From assembly GCA_963665235.2 (NCBI GenBank), contig CAXXLX010000001.1, positions 1,664,001 through 1,728,000 of the forward strand: a stretch of DNA of 64,000 nucleotides, in the 5' to 3' direction. Under the pieces are notes generated by a model. That model did no database searches and was not told where the DNA came from. It saw only the letters and a list, made by a program, of their open reading frames with translations. This stretch comes from Candidatus Poribacteria bacterium (GTDB lineage Bacteria; Poribacteria; WGA-4E; WGA-3G). The translations under genes and the position numbers were made by a program. Numbering within the stretch: position 1 is the first letter of the stretch; each line of letters opens with the position of its first letter. Positions 23,074-33,181 of the stretch are shown one piece after another.

Positions 23074-24312
23074 TGAAGATTAAGAAATTAATTCGGTAAT
23101 TTCTGTTTTTATGTTATCCTATTGTCCCAGGAGGTATTGTCTTATGTCAAAACGCCATGAACTTGAACTCAGTAAAGATGAACGCCAAAGACTGATTGAA
23201 CTCCGCGATACAGGGGAACCCGCTTATCTTCGGGAACGTGCGGCTGCCCTGCTAAAGATAGCCGCGGGAACTTCTCCACACAAAGTCGCCCTCAAAGGGC
23301 TGCTAAAGAAGCGAGATCCGGACACTGTTTATGCCTGGCTTCGCCGATACCAAGAAGAGGGCATTCAAGGATTGTTTCATAGACCGGGCCGTGGCCGCAA
23401 ACCCGCGTTCGCCCCCAAATCCCCCGAAGAAGCAGAAACCGAGGCGTTGACGGCTATAGGACAAGACCCGGGACAAGTCAAGGCACATCAAACGCGCTGG
23501 ACGCTTCGCACGGTTGGCGAGGTTGTGCCGTGGCTTGCTAATATCTCTGTGCCGGGTATCCATCAAATCTTCTCACGCCTGGGCATCAGCTATAAGCGTG
23601 CTAGACTGTATTTGCAGAGTCCGGATACAGACTATGCCAAGAAAATCGAACGGATACAGCAAGTTTTAGAAGAGACCCATCAAAACCCACAGAACACGGC
23701 TGTGCTTTATCAAGATGAGTTCTCATTTTACCGAAACCCCACTATAGCAAAAGACTGGGCACAGACAGGGACAAAAACGCCATTAGCCCATCAGAGTTAT
23801 CAATCGGATAAAACTATTTATGGTATCGGTGCTATGAACCCCCATACAGGAGACGTTGTTTATCAGCAAGTGCCAAGCTGCACAGTTGTAGCCCTCCATA
23901 CATTTTATACCGAGATTTGCCAACGCTATCCCGACAAGCAACGGATTTATCTTATCCAAGATAATCGGGCGATACATTTTCACGCCAATTTGATGGAGGC
24001 ACTGCTGCCGCAATCGGTCTCCTTTGTGAAACCGACCCCGCCGAATTGGACCGGAAAACTTTCCGAGAAAATCGGTGAACTGACAAAACTCCCGATTGAA
24101 ATAGTGCAGCTGCCGACTTATGCGCCGTGGACAAATCCGATTGAGAAGTTATGGCGATGGGTGCGGCAATCGGTTCTGCATATCCATCGCCTCTGCGATG
24201 AGTGGGAGACCCTCAAAGACAAGGTGCTTGACTTTATGACACAGTTTAGAGGCGGCTCACAAGCATTGCTACGCTATGTCGGATTATTACCGAATTAATA
24301 AATTAATCTTCA
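23074..24312 (+). mobile_element. IS630-family insertion sequence
   Basis: Imperfect TIRs TGAAGATTAA..TTAATTCGGTAAT; TTTA on both flanks. Confidence 0.88.
23144..24298 (+). CDS. IS630 family transposase
   Basis: HTH 'TVYAWLRRYQEEG..GRGRKP'; DDE motifs 'YQDE', 'QDNRAIH', 'LPTYAPWTNPIEKLW'; AGGAGG before ATG 23144. Confidence 0.92.
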   Translation: MSKRHELELSKDERQRLIELRDTGEPAYLRERAAALLKIAAGTSPHKVALKGLLKKRDPDTVYAWLRRYQEEGIQGLFHRPGRGRKPAFAPKSPEEAETEALTAIGQDPGQVKAHQTRWTLRTVGEVVPWLANISVPGIHQIFSRLGISYKRARLYLQSPDTDYAKKIERIQQVLEETHQNPQNTAVLYQDEFSFYRNPTIAKDWAQTGTKTPLAHQSYQSDKTIYGIGAMNPHTGDVVYQQVPSCTVVALHTFYTEICQRYPDKQRIYLIQDNRAIHFHANLMEALLPQSVSFVKPTPPNWTGKLSEKIGELTKLPIEIVQLPTYAPWTNPIEKLWRWVRQSVLHIHRLCDEWETLKDKVLDFMTQFRGGSQALLRYVGLLPN

Positions 24313-24525
24313 TTTAGTTTGTGCGGTTTTTTGTAGCATAAACTTTTAGTTTGTGCGGTTTTTTGTAGCATAAACTTCCTAGTTTGTGCGGTTTTTTGTA
24401 GCATAAACTTCCTAGTTTGTGCGGTTTTTTGTAGCATAAATTTTTAGTTTGTGTCTTCTGTTTTTTGCTAAAACTACCACAAAACGCTCTAGGTCAAAAC
24501 TTTTTTCAAACTCGCGTTTTTGTAC

Positions 24526-24746: not shown

Positions 24747-24776
24747 ACGTAAATCGAACCAGTTTGAAATAGAAAC
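24747..24776 (+). repeat. Solitary degenerate CRISPR repeat upstream of the leader
   Basis: ACGTAAATCGAACCAGTTTGAAATAGAAAC, 25/30 identical to the array repeat. Confidence 0.8.
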
Positions 24777-25050
24777 CCACGAACCTGTTATAGACAACGT
24801 TTGCGCGGAGAGCTGCTGATAAATGCTGCTGTCGACCTCGCTGCGATAAGCAGTTTCCGTGCTTGTCTCACCCCATGAATTCCGTAAAAAAACGGGATAA
24901 TCCCTTGTCACACAAGGATCCGTCAACCTCCTAGGAAATTTGCGTTACCGGCGGTCGACAAAAATTTGCCCTCTAAACGAAAAAAAATAAAAATAAATTT
25001 GACAAACAGTATAAGGATGTAGTATAATATTAATGCTGATTAAGCGAAGC
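24777..25050 (+). promoter_or_regulatory. CRISPR leader with putative sigma70 promoter
   Basis: GTCAACC...GGTCGAC inverted motif, A-tract, TTGACA 24999-25004, TATATAAT 25023-25030. Confidence 0.7.
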
Positions 25051-28000
25051 CTTTTAATCGAACCAGTTTGGAATAGAAATTTCATTATTTAACAGAATCG
25101 CACGACTTGTATCATCCTTTTAATCGAACCAGTTTGGAATAGAAATCTTCTGAATTAACTTTGAAATGAGAGAAGAAATTAATACTTTTAATCGAACCAG
25201 TTTGGAATAGAAATGTGTGAAACCTGTTTTGGTGGCAACCGTGTCAGCATTCTTTTAATCGAACCAGTTTGGAATAGAAATTTTGTGGTGATACCGAGAT
25301 AACCCAGTCCAGACACTTCTTTTAATCGAACCAGTTTGGAATAGAAATTTAAAACCAACTCGCCCGCGCCGCTTTCGTCAAATTGACTTTTAATCGAACC
25401 AGTTTGGAATAGAAATTCGCGTAGTTTTGCAACCACGCTATCCCCCACTTCCTTTTAATCGAACCAGTTTGGAATAGAAATTTTGACACACCGACAAGCA
25501 CTCCAAACCCTCATTCGCCTTTTAATCGAACCAGTTTGGAATAGAAACAACACTGATGGCGATGTCTTTGCAAGAGTTTTTACAACTTTTAATCGAACCA
25601 GTTTGGAATAGAAACTACGTAATATCTAATCTTGAATCCATGTGGCACGTTCAACTTTTAATCGAACCAGTTTGGAATAGAAACAATCTCTGGATAGCGG
25701 GGCAGGTGGTAGTTCCCTGACTTTTAATCGAACCAGTTTGGAATAGAAACGGTCTATTTTAGTAAGATTGGAAAGGAAGGGGAACAACCTTTTAATCGAA
25801 CCAGTTTGGAATAGAAACTTCTGGACTACTGCCCAATGGGAGAACACGGACACGCTTTTAATCGAACCAGTTTGGAATAGAAACTGGCCGGTATCGTTTC
25901 CGCAGGGGCCAGTATGGCAACTTTTAATCGAACCAGTTTGGAATAGAAACCTTTTATGTTTCCTGTGCCAGACCGCTCTGTGATTGCTTTTAATCGAACC
26001 AGTTTGGAATAGAAACTTGGACGGTATTTTAGGGGGATCTGCTTCGGTGGCCCTTTTAATCGAACCAGTTTGGAATAGAAACGCGGAAAACGTGGGGGGC
26101 ATCGGCGTAAATCATGTAGTCTTTTAATCGAACCAGTTTGGAATAGAAACAGGCGGCCCGGCATCGGTGCTGGGACCGCCCACAAACTTTTAATCGAACC
26201 AGTTTGGAATAGAAACGCTGCTGAATCTCTCCAACCGCCTTATCCTCCCACCTTTTAATCGAACCAGTTTGGAATAGAAACTGATTTCAGTATTGATAGG
26301 AATTCGTAAAGGCATTTTACTTTTAATCGAACCAGTTTGGAATAGAAACACAGCGGTTCAATATAACGTCGTTGTTGGGAATGACTTTTAATCGAACCAG
26401 TTTGGAATAGAAACGCTTCGGACAAAGTCAATAAAGCCCCGCTATCCGTTCTTTTAATCGAACCAGTTTGGAATAGAAACGATACGTTGTCTCTTGTTGG
26501 CGGTGGAACTATTAGCAACTTTTAATCGAACCAGTTTGGAATAGAAACATAAAATCTTTGTTCTTACCGGTAAAGACACACCTCTTTTAATCGAACCAGT
26601 TTGGAATAGAAACAGCGGAGTACTGCCTCCGCCTCTGGTCGAATATCGACCTTTTAATCGAACCAGTTTGGAATAGAAACAAGTTTTTTTAAACCTTTTT
26701 CTGTTATTAGCGTCTAACTTTTAATCGAACCAGTTTGGAATAGAAACGTTTCGATAGTCTTCAAGTGCTTCTTCATCGCATTTCTCTTTTAATCGAACCA
26801 GTTTGGAATAGAAACGCTCCATTTCCATGAGCTCACACAAGTCTATCATGCCGCTTTTAATCGAACCAGTTTGGAATAGAAACTATAAGGAGAAACGACA
26901 TGAAAGATTATCAAGTTCTCTCTTTTAATCGAACCAGTTTGGAATAGAAACTCTGTAAAAGTACCTACCAACGTTGCAGGATCCGCACTTTTAATCGAAC
27001 CAGTTTGGAATAGAAACGGATGTTCCATCGGTGCCATATTTGACGATGCGGGCACTTTTAATCGAACCAGTTTGGAATAGAAACGTTACCTCCGAGTTCG
27101 GACTTTTGACTGTCCATTTAGCTTTTAATCGAACCAGTTTGGAATAGAAACCTTGAATCTCCGACACAATAGAGGCGTGTGGAGAAGACTTTTAATCGAA
27201 CCAGTTTGGAATAGAAACGAAGGAATCCCGGTTGGTTCGATTTGGAGAGAATTGACTTTTAATCGAACCAGTTTGGAATAGAAACCGCTCATAGGAAAGT
27301 CGCATTACGTGCTGTCGTTTACTTTTAATCGAACCAGTTTGGAATAGAAACGTAAAAGGATGCTAGCATGGCAGAAAAGTCATTAGCTGCTTTTAATCGA
27401 ACCAGTTTGGAATAGAAACTTTCGAAAACATGTCCGGCTGTCACGACAAAATTTTGCTTTTAATCGAACCAGTTTGGAATAGAAACGCCGAAAACGATTG
27501 TCGCTGCACCCGTCGTTATTTCTTCCTTTTAATCGAACCAGTTTGGAATAGAAACCTTGTGTTTCGTTGTCGTTTTTAGACTTGAGCTCGTCCTTTTAAT
27601 CGAACCAGTTTGGAATAGAAACATGAGATTGTTGCACAATCTCAAACGGTCGAGGAGCTCGCTTTTAATCGAACCAGTTTGGAATAGAAACTCGGTTCCA
27701 ACAGTGGCTTTGATACCCGCCTTTATCTCCTTTTAATCGAACCAGTTTGGAATAGAAACGGTACTGATAATCTTCAAGTGCTTCTTCATCGCACTTCCTT
27801 TTAATCGAACCAGTTTGGAATAGAAACAGTATATTTCCATTAGCATCGATGAGAGTATATCTCCTTTTAATCGAACCAGTTTGGAATAGAAACGATTTTG
27901 AGATACGGGTGTGTGTCAATTCGCATCTCACTTTTAATCGAACCAGTTTGGAATAGAAACTCAGACATAACCGAATACGATTGGCAATTCAATAGTCCTT

Positions 28001-31000
28001 TTAATCGAACCAGTTTGGAATAGAAACGTTTACGCCGCTGTTTCTGTATCCGTTTTTTGAGTTCTTTTAATCGAACCAGTTTGGAATAGAAACTGCGCGG
28101 TCTTTTGTGCTAACTCTCACCTCACAGGCTTTTAATCGAACCAGTTTGGAATAGAAACCGAAACTATCGAAGTATTGACAACTTTGATCGAGGTCACTTT
28201 TAATCGAACCAGTTTGGAATAGAAACTCGATTTTTGGATCGACAAATTCAGCGATCGTTCTCATCTTTTAATCGAACCAGTTTGGAATAGAAACGAAACC
28301 GCAGCAATTCTAACAGAGCTCTGCGGCATACTTTTAATCGAACCAGTTTGGAATAGAAACAGTATCTCAACGAACAAGGACGAAAAAGCTTCATCGCTTT
28401 TAATCGAACCAGTTTGGAATAGAAACTCGAGTTGTGCGGAGAGTTGTGGGAAGATGGTGCCAGTCTTTTAATCGAACCAGTTTGGAATAGAAACTTGCAA
28501 GCGAAGACTTTATTATCTAGTAGCCCCCCGCTTTTAATCGAACCAGTTTGGAATAGAAACTTGGCCGTCACGGTGGCGAGCTCTGGAGTGTTACGAGTGC
28601 TTTTAATCGAACCAGTTTGGAATAGAAACTGAAACTCTACATTGGGGGCCTTGTAAGCAAAGCCGAACTTTTAATCGAACCAGTTTGGAATAGAAACTCA
28701 ACAAGGCGACTCTGCTAACGTTGATTGAGAACTTTTAATCGAACCAGTTTGGAATAGAAACATGATAACAACGATGGACATCGCAGGCGACGATGAATCT
28801 TTTAATCGAACCAGTTTGGAATAGAAACGTTGGCGATCCTAATGCTACGACTATCTCTGAAGGTGCCTTTTAATCGAACCAGTTTGGAATAGAAACTCTT
28901 TAAAGATGCATGTATATCGCTTTCCGTTTTTGACTTTTAATCGAACCAGTTTGGAATAGAAACGTTAAACGACACGATTATGCTGTTTTCTGTATCAACT
29001 TTTAATCGAACCAGTTTGGAATAGAAACCTATCAAGTTGCCAAGAAACTTTTCAAGAAGCGGTTTCCTTTTAATCGAACCAGTTTGGAATAGAAACGTTG
29101 TGCCTGGGTCATGCTGTCCTCCGCATTGCTAATTCCTTTTAATCGAACCAGTTTGGAATAGAAACATGTCACCGCCAGAAGTGTTGAGACCTGAACTTTT
29201 TTCAACTTTTAATCGAACCAGTTTGGAATAGAAACCCGCGTCCGCGCTGGTCTTCATACAGCGCGGTCTCTATCTTTTAATCGAACCAGTTTGGAATAGA
29301 AACGAGATTTTGGATGGTGCTGCAACGAAAGAGGCAGCAGACTTTTAATCGAACCAGTTTGGAATAGAAACTGCATAGAAGGCTTAAGCGACGAGAACGC
29401 TTATAAGGCTTTTAATCGAACCAGTTTGGAATAGAAACGAATTTATTACACGGGGACGTATTGATGTAGAGGACTTTTAATCGAACCAGTTTGGAATAGA
29501 AACGTGTTCACTCCAGGCAGGCTTGCGTCGGTGCTAAACCTTTTAATCGAACCAGTTTGGAATAGAAACCTTCGAACCGAATAGCCGCACGTTCTAATTC
29601 CCCGACTTTTAATCGAACCAGTTTGGAATAGAAACTTTTTAACAGCGTCGACAAGATGTTCCAGCATGAAGCCTTTTAATCGAACCAGTTTGGAATAGAA
29701 ACTAAAAAACGCTTGATTTTGGCACGGAAGTATGCGCGACCTTTTAATCGAACCAGTTTGGAATAGAAACTTACTCGTGCGGCTCAGGCCACAAATCATT
29801 TTTCGCCCTTTTAATCGAACCAGTTTGGAATAGAAACAATGCTACCGCCCGACTGCGTGGAAATGAACAAAGCAGCTTTTAATCGAACCAGTTTGGAATA
29901 GAAACATCATGTCAGAGACTTCCTTAACATCTAACAACCCCCTTTTAATCGAACCAGTTTGGAATAGAAACGGTTGCCCTCTGTATCCGTGGCCTCTAGT
30001 GCCCGCACTTTTAATCGAACCAGTTTGGAATAGAAACGGCACAAAAGGCACGCGAACGATACAACCGTCTGGCAAACTTTTAATCGAACCAGTTTGGAAT
30101 AGAAACGCTCAAACAGCACTTATCGCTCGGACAAACTCTGAACCTTTTAATCGAACCAGTTTGGAATAGAAACCGCGTCCTCGCTTGTCGTATCGGACAG
30201 CAAAGGGAGACTTTTAATCGAACCAGTTTGGAATAGAAACCGCGCAGATGCGTACGTCGAATTGATTCAAACCGAGCTTTTAATCGAACCAGTTTGGAAT
30301 AGAAACCTTTTCGTAGTAAGATGCCCACCGTTGATTTGTGGATACCTTTTAATCGAACCAGTTTGGAATAGAAACAAAAATCATACGTGGCGCGAAGACC
30401 ACCCCTTTTGCTTTTAATCGAACCAGTTTGGAATAGAAACCACAGGTAAATTTATTGAGGGTGAAGCACATCTACGACTTTTAATCGAACCAGTTTGGAA
30501 TAGAAACGATAATCGATGCTTCTCGTATACCGGAAGTCTTCTTTTAATCGAACCAGTTTGGAATAGAAACTTCTGTGTGTTACTAATGGAGCAGCTGCAA
30601 ACCGGGTAGCTTTTAATCGAACCAGTTTGGAATAGAAACTTCTAAAACCGTCCGCACGGTTTCTTCAAAGGCGATCAGCTTTTAATCGAACCAGTTTGGA
30701 ATAGAAACGAAATTCACGCCACCGCGGCCGCGCTGCTCTTCATACCTTTTAATCGAACCAGTTTGGAATAGAAACAGCAATATCCGTTTCAAGGAAATGC
30801 TCTCCATGAATCTCCTTTTAATCGAACCAGTTTGGAATAGAAACAGAGGATGGGGAAATGCACGCGTTTGATATTGGGGCTTTTAATCGAACCAGTTTGG
30901 AATAGAAACACAGACGAATTGCCCGCTTGCTGTCCACCGTCAGAAGACTTTTAATCGAACCAGTTTGGAATAGAAACGAGTTCTTCAATTCGGACGCGGA

Positions 31001-32581
31001 GTTCGCTAATTTCCTTTTAATCGAACCAGTTTGGAATAGAAACACGCGCTTGTTCAGCGAATTCAAACAAGGTCGGTGACTTTTAATCGAACCAGTTTGG
31101 AATAGAAACGTGCGTTTGATACAGAGGAGCAGGTGTTGTTGACCTTTTAATCGAACCAGTTTGGAATAGAAACTGCTAAATACCCTAACCAAGGACGACT
31201 CTCTGCAAACCTTTTAATCGAACCAGTTTGGAATAGAAACGCACCGCGGGAGCGGGAGGAGGAATAGGGATGTGGAGAAGCTTTTAATCGAACCAGTTTG
31301 GAATAGAAACTTTGACTGCCAACGGGAATTGGGGTGATATTGAAATCCTTTTAATCGAACCAGTTTGGAATAGAAACTTGCACATGAAGGACAAGGACAA
31401 CGTGTACAGCATCAGCACTTTTAATCGAACCAGTTTGGAATAGAAACAAACTCGCCTGGCAAATTCTCGTTGAACGCCAACTTTAGCTGGATGTGCAGCA
31501 GCGGTCAAAAGTGTTGAATCGCCTGGCAAATTCTCGTTGAACGCCAACCCTTTTAATCGAACCAGTTTGGAATAGAAACGCGCGGATGGCAACGCGCTGG
31601 TTGAGGCGGTCAAAACTTTTAATCGAACCAGTTTGGAATAGAAACTCTTGCTGGCCACCACGCTGAACATACTCTTCAATTACTTTTAATCGAACCAGTT
31701 TGGAATAGAAACTTCGGTGCGAGGGTGTTGTAGCGGGCAATGCTGAGTGCTTTTAATCGAACCAGTTTGGAATAGAAACAAGGCGATTGCTCCAAGAAAC
31801 CACCCGGTATCCACCTTTTAATCGAACCAGTTTGGAATAGAAACCTACTGTGACGTTCAATAGTTCGCCCTTACTGGATACGTCTTTTAATCGAACCAGT
31901 TTGGAATAGAAACTATTGTTCAGGATTAGCTAACAGTCGACGGACTTTACTTTTAATCGAACCAGTTTGGAATAGAAACCAGGCGTGGTGACGCGCATCA
32001 ACGCAATTTGAAACGCTCTTTTAATCGAACCAGTTTGGAATAGAAACTTGGAGCTACGGCGTAACCGAAACTGGCGAAATCCTTGCCTTTTAATCGAACC
32101 AGTTTGGAATAGAAACATGCGCGCGTGTGCGTGCGTGTGCGTGCGTGTGCGTGCGTCTTTTAATCGAACCAGTTTGGAATAGAAACCATATTCTTTCCGA
32201 GATGCACCTGTCTTACCAATCCATGCTTTTAATCGAACCAGTTTGGAATAGAAACGCTTTCCACTCATGACTCATGTCTCGTACACCTCTCCACCTTTTA
32301 ATCGAACCAGTTTGGAATAGAAACCAAGCAATTAGAGATACCATCAGAGGAGAGCGATAGCTTTTAATCGAACCAGTTTGGAATAGAAACGCGGTGAGAT
32401 GGTGCAGCGGTGAGATGGCGTGCATAGGCTTTTAATCGAACCAGTTTGGAATAGAAACCACTTCAATTCTCGGTCGCTTTTCGAATATAGTGTAGACTTT
32501 TAATCGAACCAGTTTGGAATAGAAACAAGCAATCAGTACAAGCAGAAAGATGCCTGTAATTACGCTTTTAATCGAACTAGT
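25051..32581 (+). CRISPR. CRISPR array, repeat CTTTTAATCGAACCAGTTTGGAATAGAAAC (30 bp), ~111 full repeats plus 1 truncated; type I-B-like
   Basis: Repeat recurs every ~67 bp with unique ~33-40 bp spacers; 3' end ATAGAAAC resembles a Cas6 handle; leader on the left, degenerate terminal repeat at 32565. Confidence 0.98.
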
Positions 32582-32606
32582 AATGACGGGTCCGTTTTTG
32601 GGGTAT

Positions 32607-33014
32607 ACGCCCCGACTAAGCTCAGAACACAAATAGCCCATGGGCCGCCACAAACCGAGTGATAGCAAGGGTCCCGGAGGCGTGAAAACCTAAATGGCCC
32701 ACTCTGTCTTAGGCATTATATGCCACCGGTATAGGCCCCGACTAAGTTCTGAACACAAATAACCCATGGGCCGCTACAAACCGAGTGATAGCAAGGGTCC
32801 CGGAGGCGTGAAAACCCAAATGGCCCACTCTGTCTTAGGCATTATATGCCCCAGTTATAGGCCCCAACTAAGTTCTGAACACAAATAGTCCATGGGCCGC
32901 TACAAAACAAGTGATAGCAAGGGTCCCGGAGGCGTGAAAACCTAAATGGCCCACTCTATTTTAGGCATTATATGCCACCGGTATAGGCCCCGACTAAGTT
33001 CTGAACACAAATAG
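32607..33014. repeat. 126-bp tandem repeat, ~3.2 copies
   Basis: CCC(G/A)ACTAAG at 32611, 32737, 32863, 32989. Confidence 0.9.
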
Positions 33015-33181
33015 GGCATAATCAACTAAAAACCGGGAGAGCTACATAATAAATTCACGCATAAATACAAAATATTTAAACACCATTTGACAATTTGTTA
33101 ATGGTCCGTTAAAATAAAAATGTGATTTTAGGGATTAGAGACTCTAAACTTGTGAACTCAAAACAGAGATATGGAGACATC

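Follow-up and report, generated by a model that had tools for sequence, protein, structure and literature searches.

In a CRISPR array of a Candidatus Poribacteria genome, we found one oversized spacer that is itself built like a small repeat-spacer-repeat unit. The array lies in the 64,000-nucleotide (nt) stretch of DNA analyzed here (GenBank assembly GCA_963665235.2, contig CAXXLX010000001.1, positions 1,664,001 to 1,728,000 of the forward strand; hereafter the window), and the oversized spacer is a 102-base pair (bp) interval between two perfect 30-bp repeats. This unit very probably arose by off-target integration of a 37-bp prespacer, mediated by a type I-B Cas1-Cas2 complex, into an existing 35-bp spacer. 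A preliminary description of the window had proposed such a ruler-based mis-integration into a spacer, and the proposal is supported by the geometry of the unit, six recurrences of that geometry elsewhere in the genome, empty-site paralogs for three of these recurrences, and a target motif.

The 102-bp unit occupies window positions 31448-31549 and consists of AAAC, a 30-bp sequence designated X, 37 bp, a second X, and C. This layout had been claimed beforehand and is borne out by the sequence, with an X of exactly 30 bp and perfect repeats on both sides. Its parts are as follows (all + strand, window coordinates).

31418 to 31447, + strand: perfect repeat upstream of the unit (repeat match)
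31448 to 31451, + strand: AAAC, first 4 nt of the presumed older 35-bp spacer, outside the duplication
31452 to 31481, + strand: X copy 1, 30 bp of the presumed older spacer and putative duplicated integration target, or neo-repeat (repeat family D13)
31482 to 31518, + strand: 37-bp insert, taken as the newer spacer, without a second genome copy
31519 to 31548, + strand: X copy 2, identical to copy 1
31549, + strand: C, last nucleotide of the presumed older spacer
31550 to 31579, + strand: perfect repeat downstream of the unit

X is TCGCCTGGCAAATTCTCGTTGAACGCCAAC, and its two copies agree at all 30 positions; both bounding repeats are perfect copies of CTTTTAATCGAACCAGTTTGGAATAGAAAC. The bases preceding the two X copies differ (C versus A), as do the bases following them (T versus C), and the duplication is therefore exactly 30 bp long. 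This is the length of the repeat, while the 37-bp insert has the commonest spacer length, and removing the insert together with one X leaves an ordinary 35-bp spacer. The 37-mer is present once, only X being repeated within the unit. With up to three mismatches allowed, X occurred twice in the window, and a match was seen in 0 of 100 shuffles. A comparison of the 102 bp with the whole genome, of 5.3 megabases (Mb), returned only the match to itself. RNA folds of X and of the CRISPR repeat had no structure in common, and no later use of X was seen in the form of copies beyond these two. The unit is approximately the 96th of the array; given that the leader lies on the left, it is in the old part.

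We measured all 311 intervals between repeats of the 30-bp family in this genome. Of these, 302 were 33-41 bp long, with 37 bp the most frequent length (n = 77), followed by 36 bp (n = 70), 38 bp (n = 67), and 35 bp (n = 35). The other oversize intervals corresponded to leaders, gene remnants, or degenerate repeats, leaving the 102-bp interval as the sole unexplained one.

The same geometry recurs outside the arrays. We scanned the genome for two-copy direct repeats with periods of 40-130, with tandem arrays and dispersed repeat families removed. Six further units were found, each combining a 30-31-bp duplication with a unique 36-37-bp insert for a period of 67-68, at the following positions of contigs C1 and C2.

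C1:2855846: sister unit
C1:3903: sister unit
C2:252969: sister unit
C2:297674: sister unit
C1:459384 and C2:328027: sister units in a multi-copy element

Among unique near-exact pairs with periods of 50-94 not divisible by three, four had periods of 67-68 and two had other periods (50 and 91). Three of the six sister units have empty-site paralogs. At C1:2855846, an IS1595-family transposase gene is split by the unit, with the zinc ribbon on one side and the DDE domain on the other, and an approximately 90% identical paralog at C1:3980724 contains the target once, with no insert. Two copies of a dispersed element are interrupted at one and the same position, by the units at C1:459384 and C2:328027, whose 37-bp inserts are unrelated; seven other copies of the element are uninterrupted at that site. 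The unit at C2:297674 covers the stop codon of a gene encoding an 889-amino acid LVIVD-repeat protein with a C-terminal sorting domain, the gene end being kept. Counting the array unit, there are seven inserts, none of which has a second genome copy (the best other matches span 13-15 nt). All are 36-37 bp long, all are different, and they have no termini in common. Insertion of a transposable element was rejected on these grounds. The first and last bases of spacers gave no usable bias for orienting the inserts.

The dispersed element that was hit twice is approximately 215-270 bp long, and some 9-11 copies exist, one of them at C1:656530-656800. Terminal inverted repeats (AAAGTTTGGAC...) bound the element, and we therefore read it as a miniature transposable element. 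An alternative identity as an RNA gene was set aside, given its terminal inverted repeats and the finding of neither an Rfam match nor covarying pairs. A search of 40 relatives did not recover the element, and some of its copies adjoin short arrays of the 37-bp-repeat type. A separate observation concerns C2:252969-253066, where the 36-bp insert resembles a variant type I-B repeat (CTATAATCGAACC..GGAAT); this insert may be DNA captured from a foreign array of the same family, or the unit may represent a decayed fragment of an array in which a spacer was duplicated. Several other candidates from the scan were discarded: those at C1:44454, 295661, and 4199244 (period 66 or 63) are in-frame repeats inside long open reading frames (ORFs); those at C1:828850, 829182, and 2695308 and at C2:513063 are made of abundant dispersed repeat families, or have an 'insert' that recurs elsewhere; and those at C2:15204, C2:324731, and C1:3799703 did not fit in length or contained parts that recur.

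We compared the targets of these units with the native repeat. Orienting each of the five distinct targets outside the arrays for best fit and comparing it in register gave 12, 12-13, 13, 14, and 16 identities with the repeat over 30 positions; for random genome 30-mers compared with the repeat, the probability of at least 12 identities was 0.11 and that of at least 16 was 0.002. A motif was defined as the positions kept in at least four of five sequences, i.e., the native repeat and four off-target sites, with the array unit and C2:252969 held out. It comprises C1, C9, A11, A12, A15, A29, and C30. Read in the orientation of the array, the 102-bp unit has five of these seven positions, although the motif was derived without it. 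At least five matches occurred in 15 of 1766 windows inside normal array spacers, placing the unit in the top 0.85%, and in 2.6% of random genome 30-mers. The held-out target at C2:252969 has six of the seven positions (0.5%). A11-A12 are kept in all seven targets, the native repeat reading AACCA at positions 11-15. A post hoc observation was that both cut sites of the array unit come after AAC; A(A/G)C precedes both cuts in 4 of 883 candidate array-spacer positions.

These results bear on whether a process unrelated to CRISPR, such as replication slippage, template switching, or break repair, could have given X-37-X by a chance duplication with filler insertion. Processes that generate repeats are active in this genome, as its great wealth of short tandem and dispersed repeats shows, and the common period of 67-68 in all units would also fit such a process. 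Against this, the 37-mer is neither duplicated nor a copy of any genome sequence, and hence neither tandem duplication nor a local template switch accounts for it. Tandem duplication by slippage was rejected for this reason, since only X is repeated and the 37-mer is single. Moreover, the duplicated length is 30-31 bp in all seven units, matching the type I-B repeat, and the targets have repeat-like positions in common. A CRISPR-unrelated origin is thus very improbable.

The CRISPR systems of the genome provide evidence on which integrase was involved. The assembly comprises 5.3 Mb in 4 contigs and is scored as 92.6% complete with 5.65% contamination. Contig C2 carries 201 further copies of the identical 30-bp repeat, and these adjoin type I-B cas6, cas8b1, cas7, cas5, and cas3, followed by a 158-amino acid C-terminal fragment of cas1b and then cas2. 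By this repeat identity, the window array belongs to the type I-B system, the cas genes of which are on another contig (C2). The adaptation module of this system is broken today. At C2:156000-157700, approximately 25 codons of a cas4-like start give way to a leader copy and a mini-array of three repeats and two spacers, which stand in place of the remaining cas4 sequence and of the N-terminal half of cas1. The third repeat is truncated at the point where the remnant of cas1 begins again. It follows that the type I-B enzyme must have acted earlier, and earlier adaptation activity is implied by the 302 spacers. A second system consists of type III genes, a reverse transcriptase, and a full-length Cas1. 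Its adjoining array has 37-bp repeats with a period of 72-79, and two more arrays also have 37-bp repeats.

This second Cas1, or alternatively a casposase-like enzyme, might therefore be considered as the integrase behind the 102-bp unit. In its favor, the Cas1 beside the reverse transcriptase and type III genes is the only full-length one in the genome, the type I-B cas1 being truncated. However, the repeat length and period of its array are 37 and 72-79, not 30 and 67, and the sole non-array unit with that geometry is a single imperfect one at C1:145875. A casposon-like origin is likewise contradicted by the inserts, which are 36-37 bp long and all different. Because the duplication has the 30-bp length of the type I-B repeat and the other arrays have 37-bp repeats, the evidence points to the type I-B integrase, and we consider the participation of a different enzyme highly improbable. 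The unit at C1:145875-145990 is of separate interest: it combines an approximately 36-bp duplication (1 mismatch) with a period of 75 and lies in AT-rich non-coding DNA. These dimensions are those of the arrays with 37-bp repeats, and the second adaptation system could have produced the unit off target.

As the preliminary description had suggested, we also scanned other arrays for the X-insert-X pattern. In 12 relatives, arrays of the same repeat family contained 1143 spacers, three of them oversize (73, 87, and 92 bp). On inspection, none of these three intervals was X-insert-X, and the 92-bp one holds a partial repeat. The 73- and 87-bp intervals (L015:15010-15082 of genome G008 and L026:7891-7977 of genome G016) show no duplication within them; a length of 73 bp corresponds to two spacers with no repeat between them. 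Within the species collection, the identical repeat occurred in just one further genome, a metagenome-assembled genome labelled Candidatus Poribacteria; none of its 114 spacers is oversize or also present in this genome. The nested unit is therefore a single case among 1559 spacers of the repeat family, 1555 of which are 32-45 bp long.

A further possibility is that the 102 bp was captured as one long prespacer from foreign DNA that already held X-37-X, for instance a mini-array on a mobile element. Nothing in the data favors this directly. The length distribution of the spacers argues against it, the next longest after the 102-bp unit being the 92-bp interval with the partial repeat, and X is not a repeat elsewhere in the genome or in three contig collections. 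A contiguous copy of the entire 102 bp in a phage or plasmid, which had been named in advance as evidence that would count against mis-integration, was looked for in such records and not found: searches gave 3 chance hits to phage records at an expectation value of 3 and nothing among plasmid records. Capture of a long prespacer would also leave the six sister units and the empty sites unexplained, and it is extremely improbable. An assembly artefact is extremely unlikely as well: the completeness and contamination scores leave some room for one, but an artefact of the array would involve the 30-bp repeats rather than an exact copy of spacer DNA around 37 unique bp, and units built in the same way are present within unique regions on two contigs.

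Several observations weigh against off-target integration by the type I-B complex. The resemblance of X to the repeat is unremarkable, with 10-11 of 30 positions identical and 36% of control windows doing as well, and when scored with a position weight matrix derived from five sequences, X reaches no higher than the top 13%. The type I-B adaptation genes are no longer intact in the present genome, cas4 and the N-terminal half of cas1 having been replaced. No pre-integration allele was found: as an exact pattern, X had 0 matches in metagenome, viral, and genome contig collections, and 40 relatives gave only repeat-level matches and no empty allele of this spacer. No source sequence for either part of the unit was found in phage or plasmid records. 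Lastly, the period is 67 or 68 in every one of the seven units, a narrower spread than the 33-41 bp of array spacers would lead one to expect; with a constant 30-bp duplication, array length counts give this a chance of approximately 0.006.

Two of these points can be qualified. When the whole array was compared with phages and plasmids by megablast, none of its 111 spacers matched; the lack of a source for the unit is thus uninformative, and the collections evidently lack coverage of the mobile elements of this organism. For three of the sister inserts, 26-nt stretches likewise had 0 matches in viral contigs, and one of the three had 0 in metagenome contigs. The narrow range of periods may reflect off-target sites that accept only prespacers of optimal length.

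Off-target integration of the 37-bp prespacer would have proceeded much as a normal acquisition does. The type I-B Cas1-Cas2 complex would have targeted the 35-bp spacer AAAC-X-C instead of the leader-proximal repeat. One 3' end of the prespacer would have attacked the top strand after AAAC, and the other the bottom strand at a point 30 bp downstream, following ...CCAAC. Gap repair on both sides would then have duplicated the intervening 30 bp, like the repeat in normal acquisition. We infer that the enzyme was Cas1-Cas2, and specifically that of type I-B, that the 37-mer was foreign DNA, and that the event is older than the loss of cas4 and the N-terminal half of cas1. Transcription of the unit would be predicted to give a CRISPR RNA with a 102-nt guide region, the first 34 nt of which would be the old guide. 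With no repeat-derived handle, the 37-mer should give no working guide and no immunity. The insert is bounded by the spacer-derived X and not by genuine CRISPR repeats, which distinguishes the unit from ectopic spacer acquisition.

On the whole, at least seven natural off-target integrations, all by a single type I-B complex, are probably preserved in this genome, a broader interpretation that we hold with less assurance than the origin of the 102-bp unit itself. One of these integrations would be nested in a spacer of the system's own array, and two would have struck one site of a dispersed element independently. As a set, the events would give an in vivo target rule (C1, C9, A11-A12, A15, and A29-C30, with cuts 30 bp apart), and spacer DNA would have been turned into a new direct-repeat pair, the first step of a proposed birth of new repeats. 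New repeat sequences might arise in this way; X itself is present in two copies, is like the repeat at 10-11 of 30 positions, and bears no sign of later use.

The array and its immediate surroundings contain the following features (window coordinates).

25051 to 32594, + strand: CRISPR array, with 111 30-bp repeats and, at 32565-32594, a degenerate terminal repeat
24777 to 25050, + strand: leader, with a consensus promoter reading into the array (promoter match; homologous to the leaders beside the type I-B cas genes)
24747 to 24776, + strand: relic degenerate repeat upstream of the leader, variant ACGTAAATCGAACCAGTTTGAAATAGAAAC, followed by the last bases of cas2

The 111 copies of the repeat lie between 25051 and 32526 on the + strand. 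The leader is 274 bp long and holds its promoter at 24999-25028, where TTGACA and TATAAT are separated by an 18-nt spacer and match the consensus at 12 of 12 positions. Sequence past the relic repeat (24747-24776) matches the end of cas2 and the leader on contig C2, and the region around 24747-24800 gives the window array the appearance of a moved copy of cas2 end, leader, and array. The 20 window ORFs that were scanned to either side of the array included no cas gene. The nearest gene encodes a DDE_3 transposase (23111-24298), and short tandem repeats follow at 24303-24450.

Some further details of the array were recorded. In the seven leader-proximal repeats (25051-25481), the final base is T rather than C, which is what a mutation of the first repeat followed by its copying in seven later acquisitions would produce. 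Two spacers have a 24-nt stretch in common (29236-29259 and 30722-30745; 92% identity), offset within the spacers, and probably derive from variants of one target region. The spacer at 32117-32156 is of low complexity, with GCGTGT-type repeats. Directly after the degenerate last repeat, a 126-bp unit is present in three tandem copies that are 89-92% alike (32604-33040). The genome as a whole is unusually rich in short tandem arrays of palindrome-bearing 30-75 bp units, for example around TCCCTACGGGAC and GTGCACAGCACGC.

If the seven units are products of one integrase, they carry several implications. Seven repaired products in one genome, with one geometry and three with empty-site controls, would indicate that the repeat-length ruler works on non-repeat DNA in nature. 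The sister events yield a testable target motif for the type I-B integrase. The nested event suggests that an array can damage its own memory unit, and that a new 'repeat' pair can arise from spacer DNA. Such events would also have costs, given that a transposase gene was split and that one unit lies at the stop codon of the gene for a large secreted-type protein.

Off-target Cas1-Cas2 integration is already known with over-expressed or purified proteins, and inherited natural products of it are rarely documented. We found no description of integration inside a spacer in the literature, as covered by open-access text without supplements. Nivala, Shipman and Church reportedly observed in 2018 that over-expressed Cas1-Cas2 of the Escherichia coli type I-E system integrates off target, giving 'neo-CRISPR' units in rare genome-wide events. 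Their evidence for such events in nature is said, in a preprint that cites them, to be circumstantial and to come from two other species. The units described here are like the products reported in that study in having a spacer-length insert, a repeat-length duplication of a non-repeat target, a target choice guided by likeness to the repeat, and the potential to seed a new repeat. In contrast to the E. coli type I-E work, they occur in a natural genome and are assigned to type I-B, and the array unit has a 30-bp duplication and a target inside a spacer of its own array.

Biochemical work provides a second comparison and is in line with the proposed mechanism. According to Grainy et al. (2019; PMC6698737), Cas1-Cas2 of Pyrococcus furiosus made full-site integrations in vitro 30-31 bp apart at non-CRISPR sites of plasmids. 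These sites share border bases and an A-rich mid-block with the repeat but resemble it only in part, the best site being 43% like it. The units in this genome are similar in their 30-bp repeat, their partly repeat-like targets, and their conserved borders and A-rich mid-block. The P. furiosus work used purified proteins and plasmids and recorded no repaired, inherited products, whereas here there are seven repaired chromosomal products. The border bases also differ, being G/C in that work, whereas C1 and A29-C30 predominate here. For type I-B adaptation in Haloarcula hispanica, Wang et al. (2016; PMC4872114) reported that a motif approximately 10 bp from the first cut is essential and that the second cut is positioned by a ruler, which likewise agrees with the proposed mechanism. 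That system has the same subtype and a 30-bp repeat, and A11-A12 are kept here in all seven targets. Unlike the H. hispanica experiments, in which the real repeat beside the leader was mutated, the targets here are non-repeat DNA.

Finally, ectopic spacer acquisition at internal repeats has been described for type II-A systems (PMC8047081; bioRxiv 10.1101/2022.05.19.492656; PMC7999890). The 102-bp unit resembles these events in that a new spacer would have entered the interior of an array and not its leader end. Ectopic events, however, use and duplicate a genuine repeat, whereas the duplicated target here is spacer DNA.

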